Of a stretch of 64,000 nucleotides of DNA, positions 55,197 to 62,396 are shown piece by piece. Position 1 is the stretch's first letter. Every line of letters begins with the position of its first letter. The notes under the pieces are model-generated. The model made no database searches. It was not told where the DNA came from and worked only from the letters and a program-made list of their open reading frames with translations. The position numbers and the translations under genes are program-made. Location: assembly GCF_055900595.2 (NCBI RefSeq), contig NZ_CM148325.1; one strand, written 5' to 3'.

Positions 55197-55204
55197 GTGC
55201 GGAA

Positions 55205-55321
55205 TTAAAAACGATATCCTGCTGAGAACATAAACACCCACGGATCAAGACGTACGCTATCGTGTTGCTGCGCACCACCCAGCTTATAATTTGCGGTGGT
55301 GTCAATATCCATGTACCAGAC
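55205..55321 (-). pseudogene. ompW: 3-prime fragment of ompW (last ~38 codons)
   Basis: Reverse-strand translation ...VWYMDIDTTANYKLGGAQQHDSVRLDPWVFMFSAGYRF-stop matches the OmpW C-terminus as I recall it; no upstream ompW sequence beyond about 55321. Confidence 0.8.
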
Positions 55322-55660
55322 TGGCAGGTTTTAAAAAATCAAATAAGATATTGTATCTGAAAGAAAAAACAGGATTTTGAGATGCTTTTTTATACCGTTT
55401 TTCAGCGTTTTTAACTGCCTGATTTTATTGAAATCTTTTTTAGTTTTGCAGAAAGGATTTTTTGATCGATTGCTTTAATTTTATACATTCCTGATAACGG
55501 AAATTTTTTACCCGTTGACAGTTTTTATCCTCCGGGGCTATATTTCCAACGCGTCAGCAAAATCTGGCGTCGGGATTGGAACCCCGGATGTTTACGGAGC
55601 GATATGAGACGCGCCCGCGTCTTTTTTCATATCGTTTGCACAGTCACATTCGCGATTTAT

Positions 55661-55737
55661 GGCGGGCTGTGTGGGGGAGCCGAAAGGCTCGCCGGTTTCC
55701 GTACCCGGTAGTTCCAACCCCGCACAGTTCGCCACCA
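55661..55737 (+). other. structured element 1 (tRNA/tmRNA-3-prime-like, ends CCACCA)
   Basis: 77 nt; 13-bp outer stem GGCGGGCTGTGTG / CGCACAGTTCGCC (with G-U pairs) enclosing a GAGCC-GAAA-GGCTC hairpin; shares a 26-nt core with element 2. Confidence 0.4.
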
Positions 55738-55791
55738 TGATGATTGGAACCTGAAGGTGGCGATAATTTTCAAATGTACGGAGTTATCGTT

Positions 55792-56352
55792 ATGCCCACT
55801 CAAATTTCTGTCGACACTCTTCCTGCAATCACCCACAACCAGGTCCCCGTTATTACAACTGAACTTCTGGCGCAGTTATACGGAACAAAAATCAAAAACA
55901 TTTCTGATAACTTTCTGAACAACACGACGCGATTCGTGGTAGGAAAGCATTACTTTAAAATTGAAAAAAACGAATTACGCGAGTTTAAGAACAGACCCGA
56001 AACAATCGGGTTAGTTGGTAAAAATGCCCGCTCCCTTATCCTCTGGACAGAACGTGGCGCAGCCCGCCATGCCAAAATGCTCGAAACCGATCAGGCATGG
56101 GAAGTGTTCGAAAAACTGGAAGACTGTTATTTCAGCCAAAAACAACCACCAGCAACACAAAACTCACCCACCCCAAATGATGGATGCGCATTACTGATCC
56201 ACTTTGATAAACACGGTCAGGTAGAGTTCACAGAAAAAGTCCCCGCCGATGCGATGGTATGCACTCTGGAACGGTTTAAATTTTATCTGGAGCAACACGG
56301 CTGGCTCGTTGCCCGTAAAGAACAACTGGTGGAAAGGCTGATGCAGCTTTAG
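55792..56352 (+). CDS. phage antirepressor-like protein with N-terminal ORF6N/KilA-N-type domain
   Basis: Start taken at the ATG with GGAG RBS; translation ...VPVITTELLAQLYGTKIKNISDNFLNNTTRFVVGKHYFKIEKNELREF... resembles ORF6N-family phage proteins. Confidence 0.6.
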   Translation: MPTQISVDTLPAITHNQVPVITTELLAQLYGTKIKNISDNFLNNTTRFVVGKHYFKIEKNELREFKNRPETIGLVGKNARSLILWTERGAARHAKMLETDQAWEVFEKLEDCYFSQKQPPATQNSPTPNDGCALLIHFDKHGQVEFTEKVPADAMVCTLERFKFYLEQHGWLVARKEQLVERLMQL

Positions 56353-56402: not shown

Positions 56403-56459
56403 GTGGGGCGCATGGGGGAGCCGAAAGGCTCGCCGGTTCAACTCCCGCCAGCTCCACCA
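56403..56459 (+). other. structured element 2 with ssrA (tmRNA) 3-prime-end-like sequence
   Basis: Core tgggggagccgaaaggctcgccggtt shared with element 1; last 25 nt GGTTCAACTCCCGCCAGCTCCACCA match my recollection of the tmRNA 3-prime terminus; followed by a T5 run. Confidence 0.45.
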
Positions 56460-56979: not shown

Positions 56980-57362
56980 TCAGGACGTCAAATAAATAAC
57001 AACTGTAATTATTCTCTCCAAATTAACAATCTCTGTATACATACTCAGGCGTGTTCACGCATACAACACGCCTTTCTGATATTTAATTGTTTACAGAAAT
57101 ATTGCCGAATAAAAATATAAACCATAGTCTTAAAAAAATAATAATTCCACTATAGCTATCCCAGAACAACCAGTACAAATAATAAAAGACATATCACAGC
57201 AACACTCCACACTGACAGCGCAAAAATAAATGCCGCCTTTGTTATCTTCATATACAAGCAACCTGTCCTGATAATCACCAACTCATGTTTTATTCTTAAC
57301 CATTCGTCACAAATACAACAAAAAATAACAGCAGCAGCACCGATATCACAATATAAGATACA

Positions 57363-57818
57363 TTATTCAACACCTGAATCCCCCGCCGCTTCTCTCCCCT
57401 TTATAAAACGCCCCTTCCGGAATCCAGACCGCTGCAGTGCACGACGAAGATGACCGTATACCGTCTTGTCATTCTGCCCCGTCTCTTCTGTAATCTCCGC
57501 AATACTTAAACCTCTGTAATACCGGTTCAGTACCGCTCTGCGCTCTTCCAGCGTCAACACACCTCCGGCCGCTCTCAGATTCATCATCGACTTATTCAGA
57601 ATACAGCAGGCCTCTCCGGTAAAAAGAATACGAACAATATCTGTATACTCATCATCACAGAATACAAAATAATATCTGAATGACCTGCCTGACTGCACCC
57701 TTCTTCTGTCTGATATGGCATCTTCTATATATCTGATTCGACTGCTTACGGTTCCAAATATCTCTCGCAGGGCTTTTTCAAAATAAATATCTCTCGTCGC
57801 CAGGATTATATCCAGCAT
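57363..57818 (-). CDS. putative HTH regulator with sigma-70 region-4/LuxR-like C-terminus
   Basis: 151 aa; C-terminal LTLEERRAVLNRYYRGLSIAEITEETGQNDKTVYGHLRRALQR fits the region-4 HTH pattern; N-terminal part unassigned. Confidence 0.4.
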   Translation of the reverse strand: MLDIILATRDIYFEKALREIFGTVSSRIRYIEDAISDRRRVQSGRSFRYYFVFCDDEYTDIVRILFTGEACCILNKSMMNLRAAGGVLTLEERRAVLNRYYRGLSIAEITEETGQNDKTVYGHLRRALQRSGFRKGRFIKGREAAGDSGVE

Positions 57819-57836
57819 CTCTGTACCTCATTATAT

Positions 57837-57856
57837 CCCGGGGGACTCCCCCCGGG
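57837..57856 (-). terminator. GC-rich hairpin between the adhesin gene and the downstream regulator gene
   Basis: cccgggggactccccccggg inverted repeat; no clear U-run, so it may be an attenuator or processing structure rather than a terminator. Confidence 0.35.
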
Positions 57857-57879
57857 ACAGATATCTAAATCCTGACCTG

Positions 57880-59520
57880 TCAGAACTCAAAATTCACACC
57901 AGCATTCCACGATGCGGATGACCCACCTGCAGCAACTGCAACTTTTCCTGCCACATTCTCTGTGAAACGGTAGCCCACGCCCACCGCAATGGCCTGCTCA
58001 TCACGGTAACCACCAACGGCTGCTGTCGCGTTAAATTTTCCAACACTGTATGGCTGGAAAAGACCGGCCAGTGCCGCGCTCTGGGCTGCACTCTCCCTTA
58101 ACTCCTTCCGGTTCTCTTTAATCTGCTCCTGCATATTATTCATTCTCTCTGTCGCCATCTTCTGCCAGGCTTCCGTCAAATCCAGACGATGACTGTTATT
58201 CCTTATCGCTGCTGTATTTGAGGCTATTGCTGCATCCGTCTGCGCCACCGCTGCCGATGTGACTGCAATAATATCCCTGCTGAGTTCATCACGTACTGCT
58301 GTAACCTGACTGTCAGTATGAGCACGGGCATCTCTGTATACACCGCCTATCTCACCACGCAGACTGTCTCCCTCTGCCTTCAGTTCATCACGTACTGCTG
58401 TGACCTGACTGTCAGTATGAGCACGGGCATCTCTGTATACACCACCTATCTCACCACGCAGACTGTCTCCCTCTGCCTTCAGTTCATCACGTACTGCTGT
58501 GACCTGACTGTCAGTATGAGCACGGGCATCTCTGTATACACCGCCTATCTCACCACGCAGACTGTCTCCCTCTGCCTTCAGTTCATCACGTACTGCTGTG
58601 ACCTGACTGTCAGTATGAGCACGGGCATCTCTGTATACACCACCTATCTCACCACGCAGACTGTCTCCCTCTGCCTTCAGTTCATCACGTACTGCTGTGA
58701 CCTGACTGTCAGTATGAGCACGGGCATCTCTGTATACACCGCCTATCTCACCACGCAGACTGTCTCCCTCTGCCTTCAGTTCATCACGTACTGCTGTGAC
58801 CTGACTGTCAGTATGAGCACGGGCATCTCTGTATACACCACCTATCTCACCACGCAGACTGTCTCCCTGTGATTTCACTTCAACCCCAAGGTTGCGGGTA
58901 CGATTATCCAGCTCCACGACGAATTCTTTAACAGGGACTGTCTGAGCATTTCCGTCAGCCCTTCCGTCAGCAGTGATTCGGCCTGATGAATCCAGAACAA
59001 AATTCTGGCCTTCAACTACATTTTTATACAATGATGACAATCCCGATGTTGTATTACTAATTTTAATAAAATCCTCAGCGGTACCACCAGCATTAACAGC
59101 GGCGATATAATCATCCTTGTTTTCTGGCTTGATTATTTTTTGTAGTGATTCTTTTGTATCAACAATGGACTTTATATCTTCTGCTTTTATATTTCTGATG
59201 TTTTCGGCTTTTAATGCATCTGAGTAGATGGGGTAAGTTAGCAAATCCTGAGCAACAATATGCCTAGCATTCTCAGGAGCTGCTAATATAGCACGCGTAA
59301 TAGAATCATTCGGGACAATACGCCCTGTATTAGCTCCAGTAATAGTATTAATAAGATTAACATCATTACCTTTTGATATTACTGCCGCACCATTATCATA
59401 CAGAGTAACCTCATATCCATCTACATTAAAACTCTCTTCTGCCATAACCCCCACAGAGTAACATAACAGCGCACCGGTAACCGCCATTGCCAATACATTC
59501 TTTGCCATTATAAATTTCAT
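57880..59520 (-). CDS. YadA-like trimeric autotransporter adhesin (Eib-like), prophage-encoded
   Basis: 546 aa; signal peptide; C-terminus [62 protein letters not shown] matches the YadA membrane anchor; coiled-coil stalk with six 33-aa repeats. Confidence 0.8.
58285..58875. repeat. six tandem copies of a 99-bp unit inside the adhesin gene
   Basis: Near-identical 99-bp units encoding [33 protein letters not shown]; successive copies alternate a synonymous ccgcc/ccacc difference, so the array is effectively 3 x 198 bp. Confidence 0.9.
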
Positions 59521-59955
59521 ATGGTATATCCTGTTAAGAAGATTAAACTGTAACCCCCCCTGAATAAGCAGGCGAGATTCTTTTCCAGGATACCTTTCAG
59601 AGTCACCACTGCATTGATTTTAACAATCAATACAGTTAACATGGAATTATAGGATAAATGCACCCCGATAAAACAATATGAGCGTTCTTGTCCCCATATG
59701 TCAGCAGAGCATTCAGATATAGCTGTCAGAATAACCGTTTCCTACATCAGTCATTCATCACAGACTCAATTGTGAATCAGTTCACCTTTTTTGCAATTCC
59801 TTTATTGATCGAAAGCAGTTAATCACAGAAATTAATTACCGGAGTGAAAGCATTTGCTATGTAAACATTCCCAGAAGACATCTTCATGTTGAATATTATT
59901 CCCTTATTGACTACACCCCTCTGACAGAATTTTCAGAGGGGTTTTTTTATCAGTT

Positions 59956-60545: not shown

Positions 60546-62396
60546 TCACCGTATTCTCTGAAACAGGCCCCAAATCGTCCCAATGATATTATTGACTGTC
60601 ATGTTAGTTGTGCATAACATCCATGTACCAAGCATATGATTGCCAAATAAAAAGCGGATATCTGTAAGTTTATCCGATGACGACGACACAATAACGGCCT
60701 GTCTGATACGATACCCGGGTATTTCACGGGTATTTGTTACCTCATGATTTCGTTCTATGATCCCCAGAACATAAGACCCCACGGAATAAACACTTCCGAC
60801 GCTCGCTGGCTGCCCCGGCTGTCCCTGCGGACCTGCCGGGCCGCGTGCACCTGTATCGCCCTTTAGTCCCTGAGGACCTGCCGGGCCGCGTTCACCTGTA
60901 TCCCCCTTTAGTCCCTGTGGACCTGCCGGACCGCGTTCACCTGTATCGCCCTTTGGTCCCTGTGGGCCACGCTCCCCCTGGGCTCCCAGCTCTTTCCATT
61001 CAGACCAGGGGCCATTACCGGTAAAATTACCAGTAACAGTTCTTACGAACTTTCGTGGTGGGTTCCAGGTTGTATATTCATGCTGGCAATATCCCCATGC
61101 ACCAACTCTTACCTGAAGATAACCCGCTCTCTGAATCGGATAATTATTTTCTCGTGTAGCCCCACTGTCTGATGGCTGATAATAATCACCCTGATCGGTC
61201 ACTCGTCCCAGTCGGTTCAGATCACCATTCAGCAGTTGTCCACGGGCTGACTCTCCTCTTGGTCCCTGAGGGCCTTCCGGACCACGTGCACCTGTTTCGC
61301 CCTTTGCTCCCTGTGGACCTGCCGGGCCGCGTTCACCTGTTTCACCTTTTGGTCCCTGTGGACCTGCCGGGCCGCGTTCACCTGTATCCCCCTTTAGTCC
61401 CTGTGGACCTGCCGGACCGCGTTCACCTGTTTCACCTTTTGGTCCCTGTGGTCCTGCCGGGCCGCGTTCACCTGTTTCACCCTTTGCTCCCTGTGGACCT
61501 TCCGGGCCACGTTCACCTGTATCGCCCTTTAGTCCCTGTGGACCTGCCGGACCGCGTTCACCTGTTTCACCTTTTGGTCCCTGTGGACCTCCCGGATCTC
61601 CTTTATCCCCCTTAGGGCCTTTTTCTCCTCGCTCACCCTTTTCTCCCTTCAGACCCTGAGGGCCTTCCGGACCACGTGCACCTGTTTCGCCCTTTGCTCC
61701 CTGTGGACCTGCCGGGCCGCGTTCACCTGTTTCACCTTTTGGTCCCTGTGGACCTGCCGGGCCGCGTGCACCTGTTTCACCCTTTGGTCCCTGAGGACCT
61801 GCCGGGCCGCGTTCACCTGTATCGCCCTTTAGTCCCTGTGGACCTGCCGGACCGCGTTCACCTGTTTCACCTTTTGGTCCCTGTGGTCCTGCCGGGCCAC
61901 GTGCTCCTGTTTCACCTTTTGGCCCCTGTGGCCCGGTAATGCCTCTTTCACCACGTGCGCCGGTATCCCCTTTCTCTCCTCGTGGTCCCCGGGCAGATGC
62001 AGCTCGTTTCCGGGCTTCCTCCGCCTCAGATGCCGCGGACTCTGCTCTGTGCAGTATGGACTGCACCACAGCCTCCAGCTCTGACAACGCCTTCGGATAA
62101 TAAGGAGCATCTTCCATCTCCATCAGAAATTTATTCAGTGTTCCCGGTGAAGAATCCTCCCTGACCACGATATCTCCCACATACGAAGGACGGTAACCTT
62201 CTGTATTGAGTGTCACCCTGTATATTCCTGGCTCCACATCCATACTGTAACTCCCCGTCTCTTCCGGCATGCCATAAGCCACTGTCGTGGCGATGACTGT
62301 CTCGCTGGTTCTCTTCGCTTTCAGCTCAATAATGCATCCCGGTACCGGTTTTCCGGTTCCGTCCCTCAGCACGCCTGAAATTTTTACAGCCGCCAT
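60546..62396 (-). CDS. phage side tail fibre with collagen-like G-X-Y repeats
   Basis: 616 aa; N-terminus [18 protein letters not shown]...IELKAKR resembles the lambda Stf N-terminal domain; two long G-X-Y blocks separated by an ~90-aa non-collagenous insert; globular C-terminal domain. Confidence 0.8.

Follow-up and report, generated by a model that had tools for sequence, protein, structure and literature searches.

A probable small LuxR/FixJ-type regulator encoded behind an Eib-like adhesin gene in an Escherichia coli prophage

Introduction

Trimeric autotransporter adhesins of the Eib type confer immunoglobulin binding, serum resistance and chain-like adherence on Shiga toxin-producing (STEC), avian pathogenic (APEC) and commensal Escherichia coli, and growth conditions strongly influence how far these adhesins are expressed. 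No cis-encoded regulator of these adhesins has been described in the literature. Here, we analyse computationally a 64,000-nucleotide stretch of DNA (contig NZ_CM148325.1 of RefSeq assembly GCF_055900595.2; referred to as the window and numbered from its first letter), which leads from the E. coli chromosome (trpB, trpA, yciG, yciF, yciE) into a lambdoid prophage at a truncated ompW, and in which the gene for an Eib-like adhesin is followed by a 151-codon gene that we call q151.

The adhesin cassette

On the minus strand, the genes for tail tip protein J, a collagen-repeat tail fibre and a 191-residue DUF4376 protein are followed by a terminator, the adhesin gene, a hairpin, q151 and two tiny hydrophobic open reading frames (ORFs); beyond this cassette lie a convergent DinI-like gene and an ORF6N/antirepressor-like gene. 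From the adhesin gene onwards, the features are:

57880..59520, minus strand: gene for a 546-residue YadA-type trimeric autotransporter adhesin, Eib-like (Pfam YadA_anchor, PDB YadA anchor, identity to Eib anchors, tandem repeats)
57834..57859, minus strand: intercistronic GC hairpin with an 11-bp stem, a GAGU loop and no U-run (sequence, RNA folding)
57826..57829, minus strand: Shine-Dalgarno sequence GAGG, 7 nt before the q151 ATG (direct reading)
57363..57818, minus strand: q151, 151 codons, ATG start (ORF list; annotation by the Prokaryotic Genome Annotation Pipeline, PGAP)
57591..57818, minus strand: truncated receiver-like alpha/beta domain of q151, residues 1-76 (AlphaFold2 (AF2) model, fold matches to RcsB, FixJ, EvgA and REC domains, hhalign against NarL/FixJ regulators, phrog_6585 match)
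57426..57560, minus strand: LuxR/sigma-4-type helix-turn-helix (HTH) of q151, residues 87-131 (Pfam Sigma70_r4_2, GerE profile match, superposition on sigma-4 of extracytoplasmic function (ECF) sigma factors)
57296..57373, minus strand: 25-codon hydrophobic ORF (VLNNVSYIVISVLLLLFFVVFVTNG) with a GTG/TTG start overlapping the q151 stop (sequence reading; invariant in 13 loci; expression predicted)
57156..57251, minus strand: 31-residue ORF with a single transmembrane segment (MKITKAAFIFALSVWSVAVICLLLFVLVVLG; ORF list, comparison with ORF-60/phrog_9340)
57144..58246, minus strand: 1,103-bp constant module (BLAST of 13 loci, variable-site count)

Sequence reading and Pfam bear out the layout given in the initial annotation, namely a 151-residue ORF after the adhesin gene on the same strand with a GC hairpin lacking a U-run between the two; q151 starts 61 nt past the adhesin stop. 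At ≥99% identity, the gene is carried by 183 of 5426 complete E. coli genomes (3.4%), always on the chromosome, and it is annotated and at least 80% covered, that is, not truncated, in 182 of these 183 carriers. The commonest variant is M79L, listed in 5,466 blocks of an assembly collection. A 220-residue 'fusion' (P0002), read from its protein sequence as q151 joined to both small ORFs, could only be an infrequent variant or an artefact of assembly, since the T6 tract is unchanged in the 13 other loci compared.

The C-terminal helix-turn-helix

PGAP names the q151 product a 'sigma factor-like helix-turn-helix DNA-binding protein' (WP_115224195.1). Pfam Sigma70_r4_2 matches residues 87-130 (E 1.8e-7; 31.1 bits against a gathering score of 25.7), and the HTH alone, taken from the AlphaFold model, superposes on ECF sigma-4 domains with a root-mean-square deviation of 0.6-0.9 Å (Foldseek). 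GerE, the Pfam domain of LuxR-type proteins, gives no match to q151 itself at E ≤ 1 and is found in the homologue WP_028985823.1 at 33 bits (cut-off 23.5). When the profile of the q151 family is compared with PDB sequences, GerE comes first (E 1.1e-5), followed by VraR, EvgA, DevR and NarL, with ECF sigma-4 domains interleaved. The C-terminal HTH of the sigma-70 region-4/LuxR class that had been proposed from the sequence is thus upheld, Sigma70_r4_2 scoring above its gathering score and the family profile preferring GerE. The last residues, 135-151, are predicted to be disordered.

The HTHs of LuxR proteins and of sigma region 4 are known to be structurally alike, and a match to sigma models is therefore not specifically informative. 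The NCBIfam sigma models match no more than the last ~50 residues, with scores of 16-21 bits where 43-222 would be required; Sigma70_r2 is absent at E ≤ 1, and the N-terminal domain is predicted to be alpha/beta rather than a helical sigma-2, for which reasons a sigma factor was rejected as the identity of q151. Like region 4 of ECF sigma factors in the sequence and structure of its HTH, q151 differs from these factors in having no sigma-2, and the label 'sigma factor-like' reflects a generic sigma-4/LuxR HTH likeness only and is misleading. That q151 is an atypical sigma factor, a decoy consisting of sigma-4 only or an antiterminator acting on RNA polymerase is very improbable in our judgement. 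In favour of this reading are Pfam and NCBIfam, whose best matches to q151 are models of sigma-70 region 4 and of ECF sigma factors, the close fit of its HTH to ECF sigma-4 and the upstream hairpin as a possible antitermination target. Against it stand the missing region 2, the alpha/beta N-terminal half, NCBIfam sigma scores well short of their cut-offs, the preference of the family profile for GerE/LuxR and a homologue with a bona fide GerE domain. The initial annotation's suggestion of an atypical sigma factor is accordingly abandoned, with no sigma region 2 and a receiver-like N-terminal half, and nothing points to the antiterminator role that it had also raised.

A probable truncated receiver in the N-terminal half

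The N-terminal residues, which the initial annotation had described as matching nothing recognisable, have no match in Pfam, NCBIfam or PDB sequences. In searches of 5.8 billion and 1.84 billion proteins, q151 found only copies or fragments of itself (some of them frameshifted), at least ~88% identical over the aligned stretch, and HTH-only matches; tblastn of phage genomes likewise yielded nothing beyond near-identical copies or fragments and HTH-only matches. To this extent the description holds, and where it fails is in the match of residues 3-74 to phrog_6585 (E 3.4e-4), a family of 'unknown function' that corresponds to the ORF-156 family described below, and in the assignment of this half, by profile alignment and AF2, to a truncated and degenerate NarL/FixJ receiver.

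A single-sequence AlphaFold prediction of q151 was of no use (predicted local distance difference test (pLDDT) 38), and AF2 with an alignment of 31 sequences of the q151 family gave a model with pLDDT 78 and a predicted template modelling score of 0.76. The modelled N-terminal domain has the order b1(2-7), a1(11-21), b2(27-30), a2(31-42), b3(49-54), a3(56-65), b4(71-75); the helices of the HTH follow at 90-101, 106-113 and 117-131, ahead of a disordered tail. In Foldseek searches of the PDB, the top full-length matches are all NarL/FixJ response regulators, with RcsB best (E 1.7e-3, probability 0.99), followed by FixJ, StyR, EvgA, VpsT, DesR and LiaR. A reference profile built from six E. coli regulators of this class (EvgA, RcsB, NarL, NarP, UvrY and FimZ) aligns with the q151 family over 146 columns in hhalign, with a probability of 85.6% that rises to 94.2% (E 1.1e-7) with the enlarged family. 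Tested singly, several E. coli K-12 regulators match in the C-terminal part only (UvrY 90%, BglJ 79%, EvgA 73%), RcsB alone reaches 11-13%, and GadE, DctR and RcsA stay below 8%. MatA/EcpR is the only K-12 protein tested that aligns nearly full length (54%, E 1.3e-4, family columns 3-130 on MatA 25-186).

On the basis of the model and the profile alignments, it is well supported that the N-terminal half is a truncated, degenerate receiver of the NarL/FixJ class. With RcsB, EvgA, UvrY, NarL and FimZ, q151 shares the order of receiver and LuxR-type HTH and the acceptor Asp, whereas it is ~60 residues shorter, has a four-stranded receiver, carries Thr-Arg instead of the acidic pair and lacks the conserved Lys. 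In the alignment, the phospho-acceptor position, where beta3 ends, is filled by D55, which all 31 family members share; T8-R9 take the place of the Mg2+-binding acidic pair, and alpha4-beta5-alpha5 with the conserved Lys is absent, corresponding to a loss of ~45-60 receiver residues. The domain does not have the complete (beta-alpha)5 fold, the AF2 model showing four strands only, nor does it have the full set of acidic pair, conserved Thr/Ser after beta4 and beta5 Lys. With its acidic pair replaced and neither the beta5 Lys nor alpha4-beta5-alpha5 present, q151 is, as judged from its sequence, not phosphorylatable in the canonical manner; no histidine kinase or phosphorelay partner gene is present within the cassette or the conserved module, an unlinked partner being conceivable.

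The rejected ALTERNATIVES for the fold were a decayed Pin/Hin-type invertase and a GadE/DctR-like protein. The latter, a first guess from the N-terminal motif, scored 1.5% and 0.5% in hhalign, and <5% with a larger profile. Genes for serine invertases commonly adjoin phage tail-fibre genes and encode an alpha/beta domain followed by a C-terminal HTH. q151, too, lies just downstream of tail-fibre genes, its four-stranded alpha/beta N-domain is compatible with a resolvase fold, and a viral fold library, which otherwise matched the HTH only, returned one weak 'DNA invertase' (E 0.07, probability 0.30). Nevertheless, that q151 is a degenerate remnant of a Pin/Hin/Gin-like serine invertase is hardly credible, given that PinE reaches 0.2-0.5% against the family (hhalign), that Resolvase and HTH_7 are absent from all members at E ≤ 10 (Pfam), that no recombinase is found among the top PDB fold matches, that the position of the catalytic Ser holds Asp or Asn and that the cassette also occurs outside phages. 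PADLOC defence models matched neither q151 nor ORF-156.

The ORF-156 family

The GenBank records of prophages P-EibA and P-EibC (AF151091, AF151674) and of phage GER2 show the gene order orf-191 (DUF4376), stem-loop, eib, stem-loop, ORF-156, ORF-60; the two prophage records were deposited with the work of Sandt and Hill. ORF-156 (AAF63235 / AAF63036), a form that has been in GenBank since 2000, aligns with q151 over the whole length at ~21% identity (pairwise BLASTP E 4e-4). Both N-termini carry the motif (I/V)ILATR(D/N)xY(F/L)E, and an alignment of 19 ORF-156 members, all from E. coli, all 'hypothetical' and without a Pfam domain, matches q151 in hhalign with 93.6% probability (E 2e-7, 128 columns). 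The invariant residues shared by the two include T8, Y12, E14, R40, D55, G68 and K118-T119-V120. A profile search with the combined alignment found the superfamily nearly confined to Escherichia; outside this genus, it returned a single protein from Citrobacter and a single fragment from Salmonella. Neither the GenBank records nor PHROGs assign a function to ORF-156/phrog_6585.

ORF-156 of P-EibA, P-EibC and GER2 has the same place and orientation as q151, after a prophage YadA-type adhesin gene, behind a stem-loop and before the small tail-anchored ORF-60/phrog_9340. The two proteins are homologous over their full length but only ~21% identical, with 156 and 151 residues, respectively; a segment of 15 residues that separates the last strand from the HTH is missing from q151, and the sigma-70 region 4 match of the q151 HTH has no counterpart in ORF-156, to which Pfam assigns nothing. 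The ORF-156 family has a dN/dS of 0.08-0.20, indicating purifying selection, and because of this and of the annotated, at least 80% covered copies in 182 of the 183 carriers, q151 is a real gene and no chance ORF.

Further relatives are found on plasmids, where PGAP already names them LuxR-type. The 189-residue WP_028985823.1 of STEC plasmids has a GerE domain above the Pfam cut-off (E 4.7e-8) and aligns with residues 4-131 of q151 (BLASTP E 2e-8), and a 158-residue LuxR-family protein encoded beside pap genes matches q151 with E 2e-4. Both resemble q151 in their N-domain and overall length and also adjoin surface or adhesin loci. Unlike that of q151, their HTH scores as GerE and not as sigma region 4, and they are encoded next to RTX-repeat or giant proteins, or to P fimbriae, rather than to trimeric autotransporters. 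On plasmid NZ_CP015239.1 (L028), the GerE-bearing member lies directly downstream of the genes for a giant (>3,600 residues) unannotated protein and a 622-residue protein with RTX calcium-binding repeats, which may be another pairing of surface protein and regulator. Other members lie in islands: P0064 (loci L009-L011) occurs with PapB-, PerC- and AraC-family genes, to which L010 adds a 1,369-residue classical autotransporter, and P0052 (L006-L008) adjoins a PerC-family gene downstream of hpaBC; neither has a trimeric adhesin nearby. The ORF-156-like members in such regulator islands are 50-54% identical to ORF-156. The family is consistently tied to loci for surface proteins and to other virulence regulators.

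Taken together with the profile comparisons, q151 very probably encodes a LuxR/FixJ-class DNA-binding protein homologous to ORF-156. The two appear to be alleles of one LuxR/FixJ-type family with a truncated pseudo-receiver, a recognition that appears to be new.

The cassette downstream of q151 is conserved as well. Homologues of ORF-60 (phrog_9340), with the motif ...(K/R)YTxGAMCFMLFVWLGGVV..., are present in ORF-156-type cassettes even where gene callers missed them, and share the core pattern T..A..F.L.VW...V with the 31-residue ORF of the window, which is its positional counterpart and, from this pattern, probably also its sequence counterpart.

A constant module joined to variable adhesins

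Pfam YadA_anchor matches the adhesin with E 1.3e-16, and its anchor is 41-59% identical to those of EibA/C/D/E. Its stalk contains 6.1 tandem copies of a 99-bp (33-residue) coiled-coil repeat at 98% identity (58283-58882); in the otherwise identical strain Ch1, four copies, two fewer, give a 480-residue adhesin, so that stalk length differs between the strains with repeat copy number. Linkage was assessed from exact-sequence look-ups of q151 and its M79L variant, which cover 16 distinct places. In 16/16 of these a YadA_anchor gene lies beside q151, with a spacing of 61-62 nt except at L038, where an insertion sequence (IS) element separates the two, and across the q151 loci the adhesins range from 346 to 581 residues. 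At least five genomic contexts are represented. Some copies lie in prophages (at trp/ompW, close to dusA/pspG or close to zinT), others at a chromosomal site flanked by transketolase-like genes and mliC/nanE, in islands of the AlpA/YagK type or in a region with a gene for a serine protease autotransporter (SPATE) and aerobactin genes; the cassette thus occurs outside phages too, and one genome has four copies of q151. Copies in islands retain a remnant of the 3' end of the phage DUF4376 gene together with its terminator.

BLAST comparisons between loci delimit the constant module, which is 99.6-99.7% identical across unrelated contexts, has sharp bounds and comprises the last 122 adhesin codons, the hairpin, q151 and the two small ORFs, ending 12 nt past the second. 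Among 14 module copies, q151 varies at a single site in its 456 nt (codon 79, M/L), compared with four sites in the 219 nt downstream and one, synonymous, at the 3' end of the adhesin gene. Upstream of the module the passenger region varies, and the adhesin head of this window is found in only 6 genomes. The recombination boundary within the adhesin gene is sharp, at 58246 (loci L034-L049), and many passenger variants occur on the same module. The order of adhesin gene, hairpin, regulator gene and small transmembrane ORF recurs in P-EibA, P-EibC, GER2, two further prophage types and a plasmid, and ORF-156-type cassettes show the same architecture at other attachment sites and with other tail fibres or spikes. 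The regulator gene is welded to the adhesin anchor as a constant module, which appears to be a new observation.

A segment that has spread recently and recombines could also carry a functionless or decaying passenger. q151 shows almost no allele diversity, owing to which constraint on this allele is not measurable, its receiver is truncated and has lost the catalytic residues, a hairpin precedes the gene, shortened (P0004), frameshifted and fused forms exist, and L038 has its IS element. We nevertheless regard a relic within the 1.1-kb segment as decidedly improbable: q151 is untruncated, with at least 80% coverage, in 182/183 genomes and has a good Shine-Dalgarno sequence, its sole polymorphism is the conservative M/L exchange whereas the flanking non-coding DNA has four, and the ORF-156 family has kept the same invariant residues over deep divergence at a dN/dS of 0.08-0.20.

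Transcription signals of the cassette

The GC palindrome of the hairpin, cccgggggactccccccggg on the plus strand, lies at 57838-57857. Its minimum free energy is -23.6 kcal/mol (z = -2.1; 6/200 shuffles fold equally well), and Rfam has no match there. The hairpin is followed by AUAUAAUGAGG in place of a U-run, and for this reason the terminator scan makes no call. A strong GC stem-loop is found between the adhesin and regulator genes in every cassette: in the ORF-156 type, the stem with T5-T8 is a canonical intrinsic terminator, whereas the q151 type has an unrelated stem without a T-run at the same position.

A consensus scan predicted no sigma-70-like promoter between the adhesin gene and q151. 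The perfect TATAAT at 57830-57835, abutting the 3' foot of the hairpin, was not counted as a promoter, because it has no -35 partner and a transcript would start inside or after the Shine-Dalgarno sequence. Two further features lie upstream of the adhesin gene:

59675..59704, minus strand: best sigma-70-like promoter candidate of the cassette, CTGACA-18-CATATT (consensus scan only)
59915..59942, strand not assigned: stem-loop terminator after the DUF4376 tail-fibre-associated gene (terminator scan)

With this terminator, the cassette is insulated from the tail operon; eibA/eibC have the same feature annotated upstream of them. Some 90-115 nt upstream of the adhesin ATG, at 59608-59636, an inverted repeat with 12-bp arms (ACTGTATTGATT-5-AATCAATGCAGT, minus strand) could be an operator or a hairpin of the 5' untranslated region; it is found only in cassettes of one of two promoter classes (class A, see below), at 5/16 q151 loci. 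The only k-mers shared by both promoter classes are AATAATATTC and TATTGTTTT, within chance expectation.

Most simply read, these signals suggest that read-through would supply the regulator and the small peptides at a low level, with the hairpin serving as an attenuator and/or a 3' stabiliser of the adhesin message.

A model for q151 function

The interpretation that we slightly favour takes q151 to be a small regulator of the LuxR/FixJ (NarL) type that acts without phosphorylation, and to be the window's allele of ORF-156, encoded after Eib-type adhesin genes in E. coli prophages, islands and plasmids. In the proposed model, the cassette would be transcribed from the adhesin promoter, and the GC hairpin would end or stabilise most transcripts, as its position and the terminators of the sister cassettes suggest, so that adhesin mRNA is abundant and only read-through reaches q151. 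From the read-through mRNA, q151 would be made, along with one or two very small membrane peptides (homologues of ORF-60) initiated at overlapping or adjacent starts. Canonical phosphorylation of q151 is predicted to be impossible, though Asp55 is invariant. To bind DNA, the protein would dimerise, either with itself or with a FixJ/NarL-type host protein such as RcsB, the obvious partner candidate given that pairing with auxiliary regulators of this kind is known for E. coli RcsB. It may thereby adjust transcription of the adhesin cassette and/or of host surface genes, as MatA/EcpR does for the ecp fimbrial operon, and the small downstream membrane peptide(s) may modulate its activity.

MatA/EcpR, BglJ and GadE, auxiliary regulators of the FixJ/NarL type, work together with RcsB without a need for phosphorylation, and MatA is an activator of its own fimbrial operon (PMC5651002). 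These RcsB auxiliary regulators are a functional group and not one sequence family. Like q151, MatA/EcpR is a small FixJ/NarL-type protein with a non-phosphorylatable N-domain that is encoded in an adhesin cluster, and its alignment with the family includes the motif xxIxxxxDxYFxKGLxEL. The similarity between the two is weak (54% probability, 19% identity), MatA has 196 residues and common membership of one family is putative; moreover, MatA comes first in its operon, in contrast to the distal q151 with its preceding hairpin. By analogy, the likeness supports the notion that q151 works like MatA.

Several observations weigh against this model. The hairpin parts q151 from the adhesin gene, and with a hairpin or terminator in this position q151 may be poorly expressed. 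The upstream regions of six cassettes barely align and no operator is co-conserved among them, and one and the same regulator module is combined with two unrelated classes of adhesin 5' region, which differ in promoter-proximal DNA and signal peptide (class A in 4/12 and class B in 8/12 loci; one of the two N-terminal/promoter classes begins MLKRRDAFLK...). Divergent members without an adjacent trimeric adhesin lie near genes for PapB, PerC and AraC regulators, a classical autotransporter, pap genes or RTX proteins. In the protein collection, a frequent N-terminally shortened form has 111 residues (P0004, 116 member sequences) and could come from truncated genes or from starts that were called differently. 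The N-domain alone compares with receivers at a non-significant 4.6% in hhalign, yet in the same register, and an N-domain-only profile has no match among PDB sequences; the receiver assignment, well supported but not proven, consequently rests on the full-length profile alignment and on an AF2 model from a shallow alignment of 31 sequences. Lastly, we found no study of ORF-156 or q151 in the literature.

What q151 would regulate is a separate question. Its own adhesin cassette as the main target is a tentative proposal that we hold to be possible, a little short of even. The initial annotation had suggested a dedicated partner regulator of the adhesin; the tie to the adhesin stands, given the adjacency in 16/16 places, the 99.6% identical module and the ORF-156 gene order, while 'dedicated' is unproven in view of the two 5' classes and the adhesin-free relatives. 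Alternatively, q151 could be a moron-encoded regulator aimed mainly at host genes, for example via an RcsB heterodimer, that shares a mobile module with the adhesin as cargo. Consistent with this are the constancy of the regulator module next to two unrelated adhesin promoter/5' classes, the lack of a conserved operator upstream of the adhesins, the family members in regulator islands without trimeric adhesins, and RcsB as the top structural match, for which the auxiliary regulators acting with RcsB provide a precedent. We consider it somewhat unlikely, since the adjacency to a YadA anchor in 16/16 places, kept across alleles that are only ~21% identical, exceeds usual co-transport, and since the match to RcsB is largely a generic HTH match, RcsB reaching only 11-13% against the family by hhalign.

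The preferred model, a phosphorylation-independent LuxR/FixJ-type regulator of the ORF-156 family, can be extended further, in a form that we consider quite unlikely: the 1.1-kb module might be a self-contained control unit for prophage trimeric adhesins, in which the ORF-60-like peptide would tether or gate the regulator or sense the load on the envelope or of the adhesin, and the regulator would feed back on the adhesin, directly or by hijacking RcsB.

Other features of the prophage region

The junction of prophage and chromosome is marked by a truncated ompW fragment at 55203-55328 next to yciE, annotated in the identical region of strain Ch1. A P1/P7 immI-like module lies at the prophage end (55538-56352). 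Here, Rfam places c4-a1b1 targets at 55538-55590 (44.6 bits, just under the gathering score of 46.7), isrK at 55551-55627 and a C4 antisense RNA at 55655-55739, directly downstream of which is the gene for the ORF6N-domain (antirepressor-like) protein (55744-56352), annotated as frameshifted in Ch1. The ends of the tmRNA model are matched by 43 nt at 56417-56459 (E 3e-6; 22.5 bits, under the gathering score), possibly a fragment of a relic attachment site left by an ssrA-integrating element. On the other side of the cassette, the tail-fibre gene (60546-62396) contains long collagen-like Gly-X-Y tracts with ~15 degenerate 45-bp repeats (61259-61931) and a second short repeat array at 60821-60965.

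Conclusions

The gene that follows Eib-type adhesin genes, in two very divergent alleles, is very probably that of a LuxR/FixJ-class protein, and relatives of the family are located beside other adhesin and regulator loci, which appears to be new. The results support replacement of the database name 'sigma factor-like'; q151 would otherwise be an ordinary kind of bacterial regulator, belonging to a well-known class. If the 1.1-kb module were indeed a self-contained control unit, the static-growth or bistable Eib and chain-formation phenotypes would gain a cis-encoded switch that has been overlooked since 2000. As it stands, q151 is a concrete candidate for the control of Eib-type adhesins.

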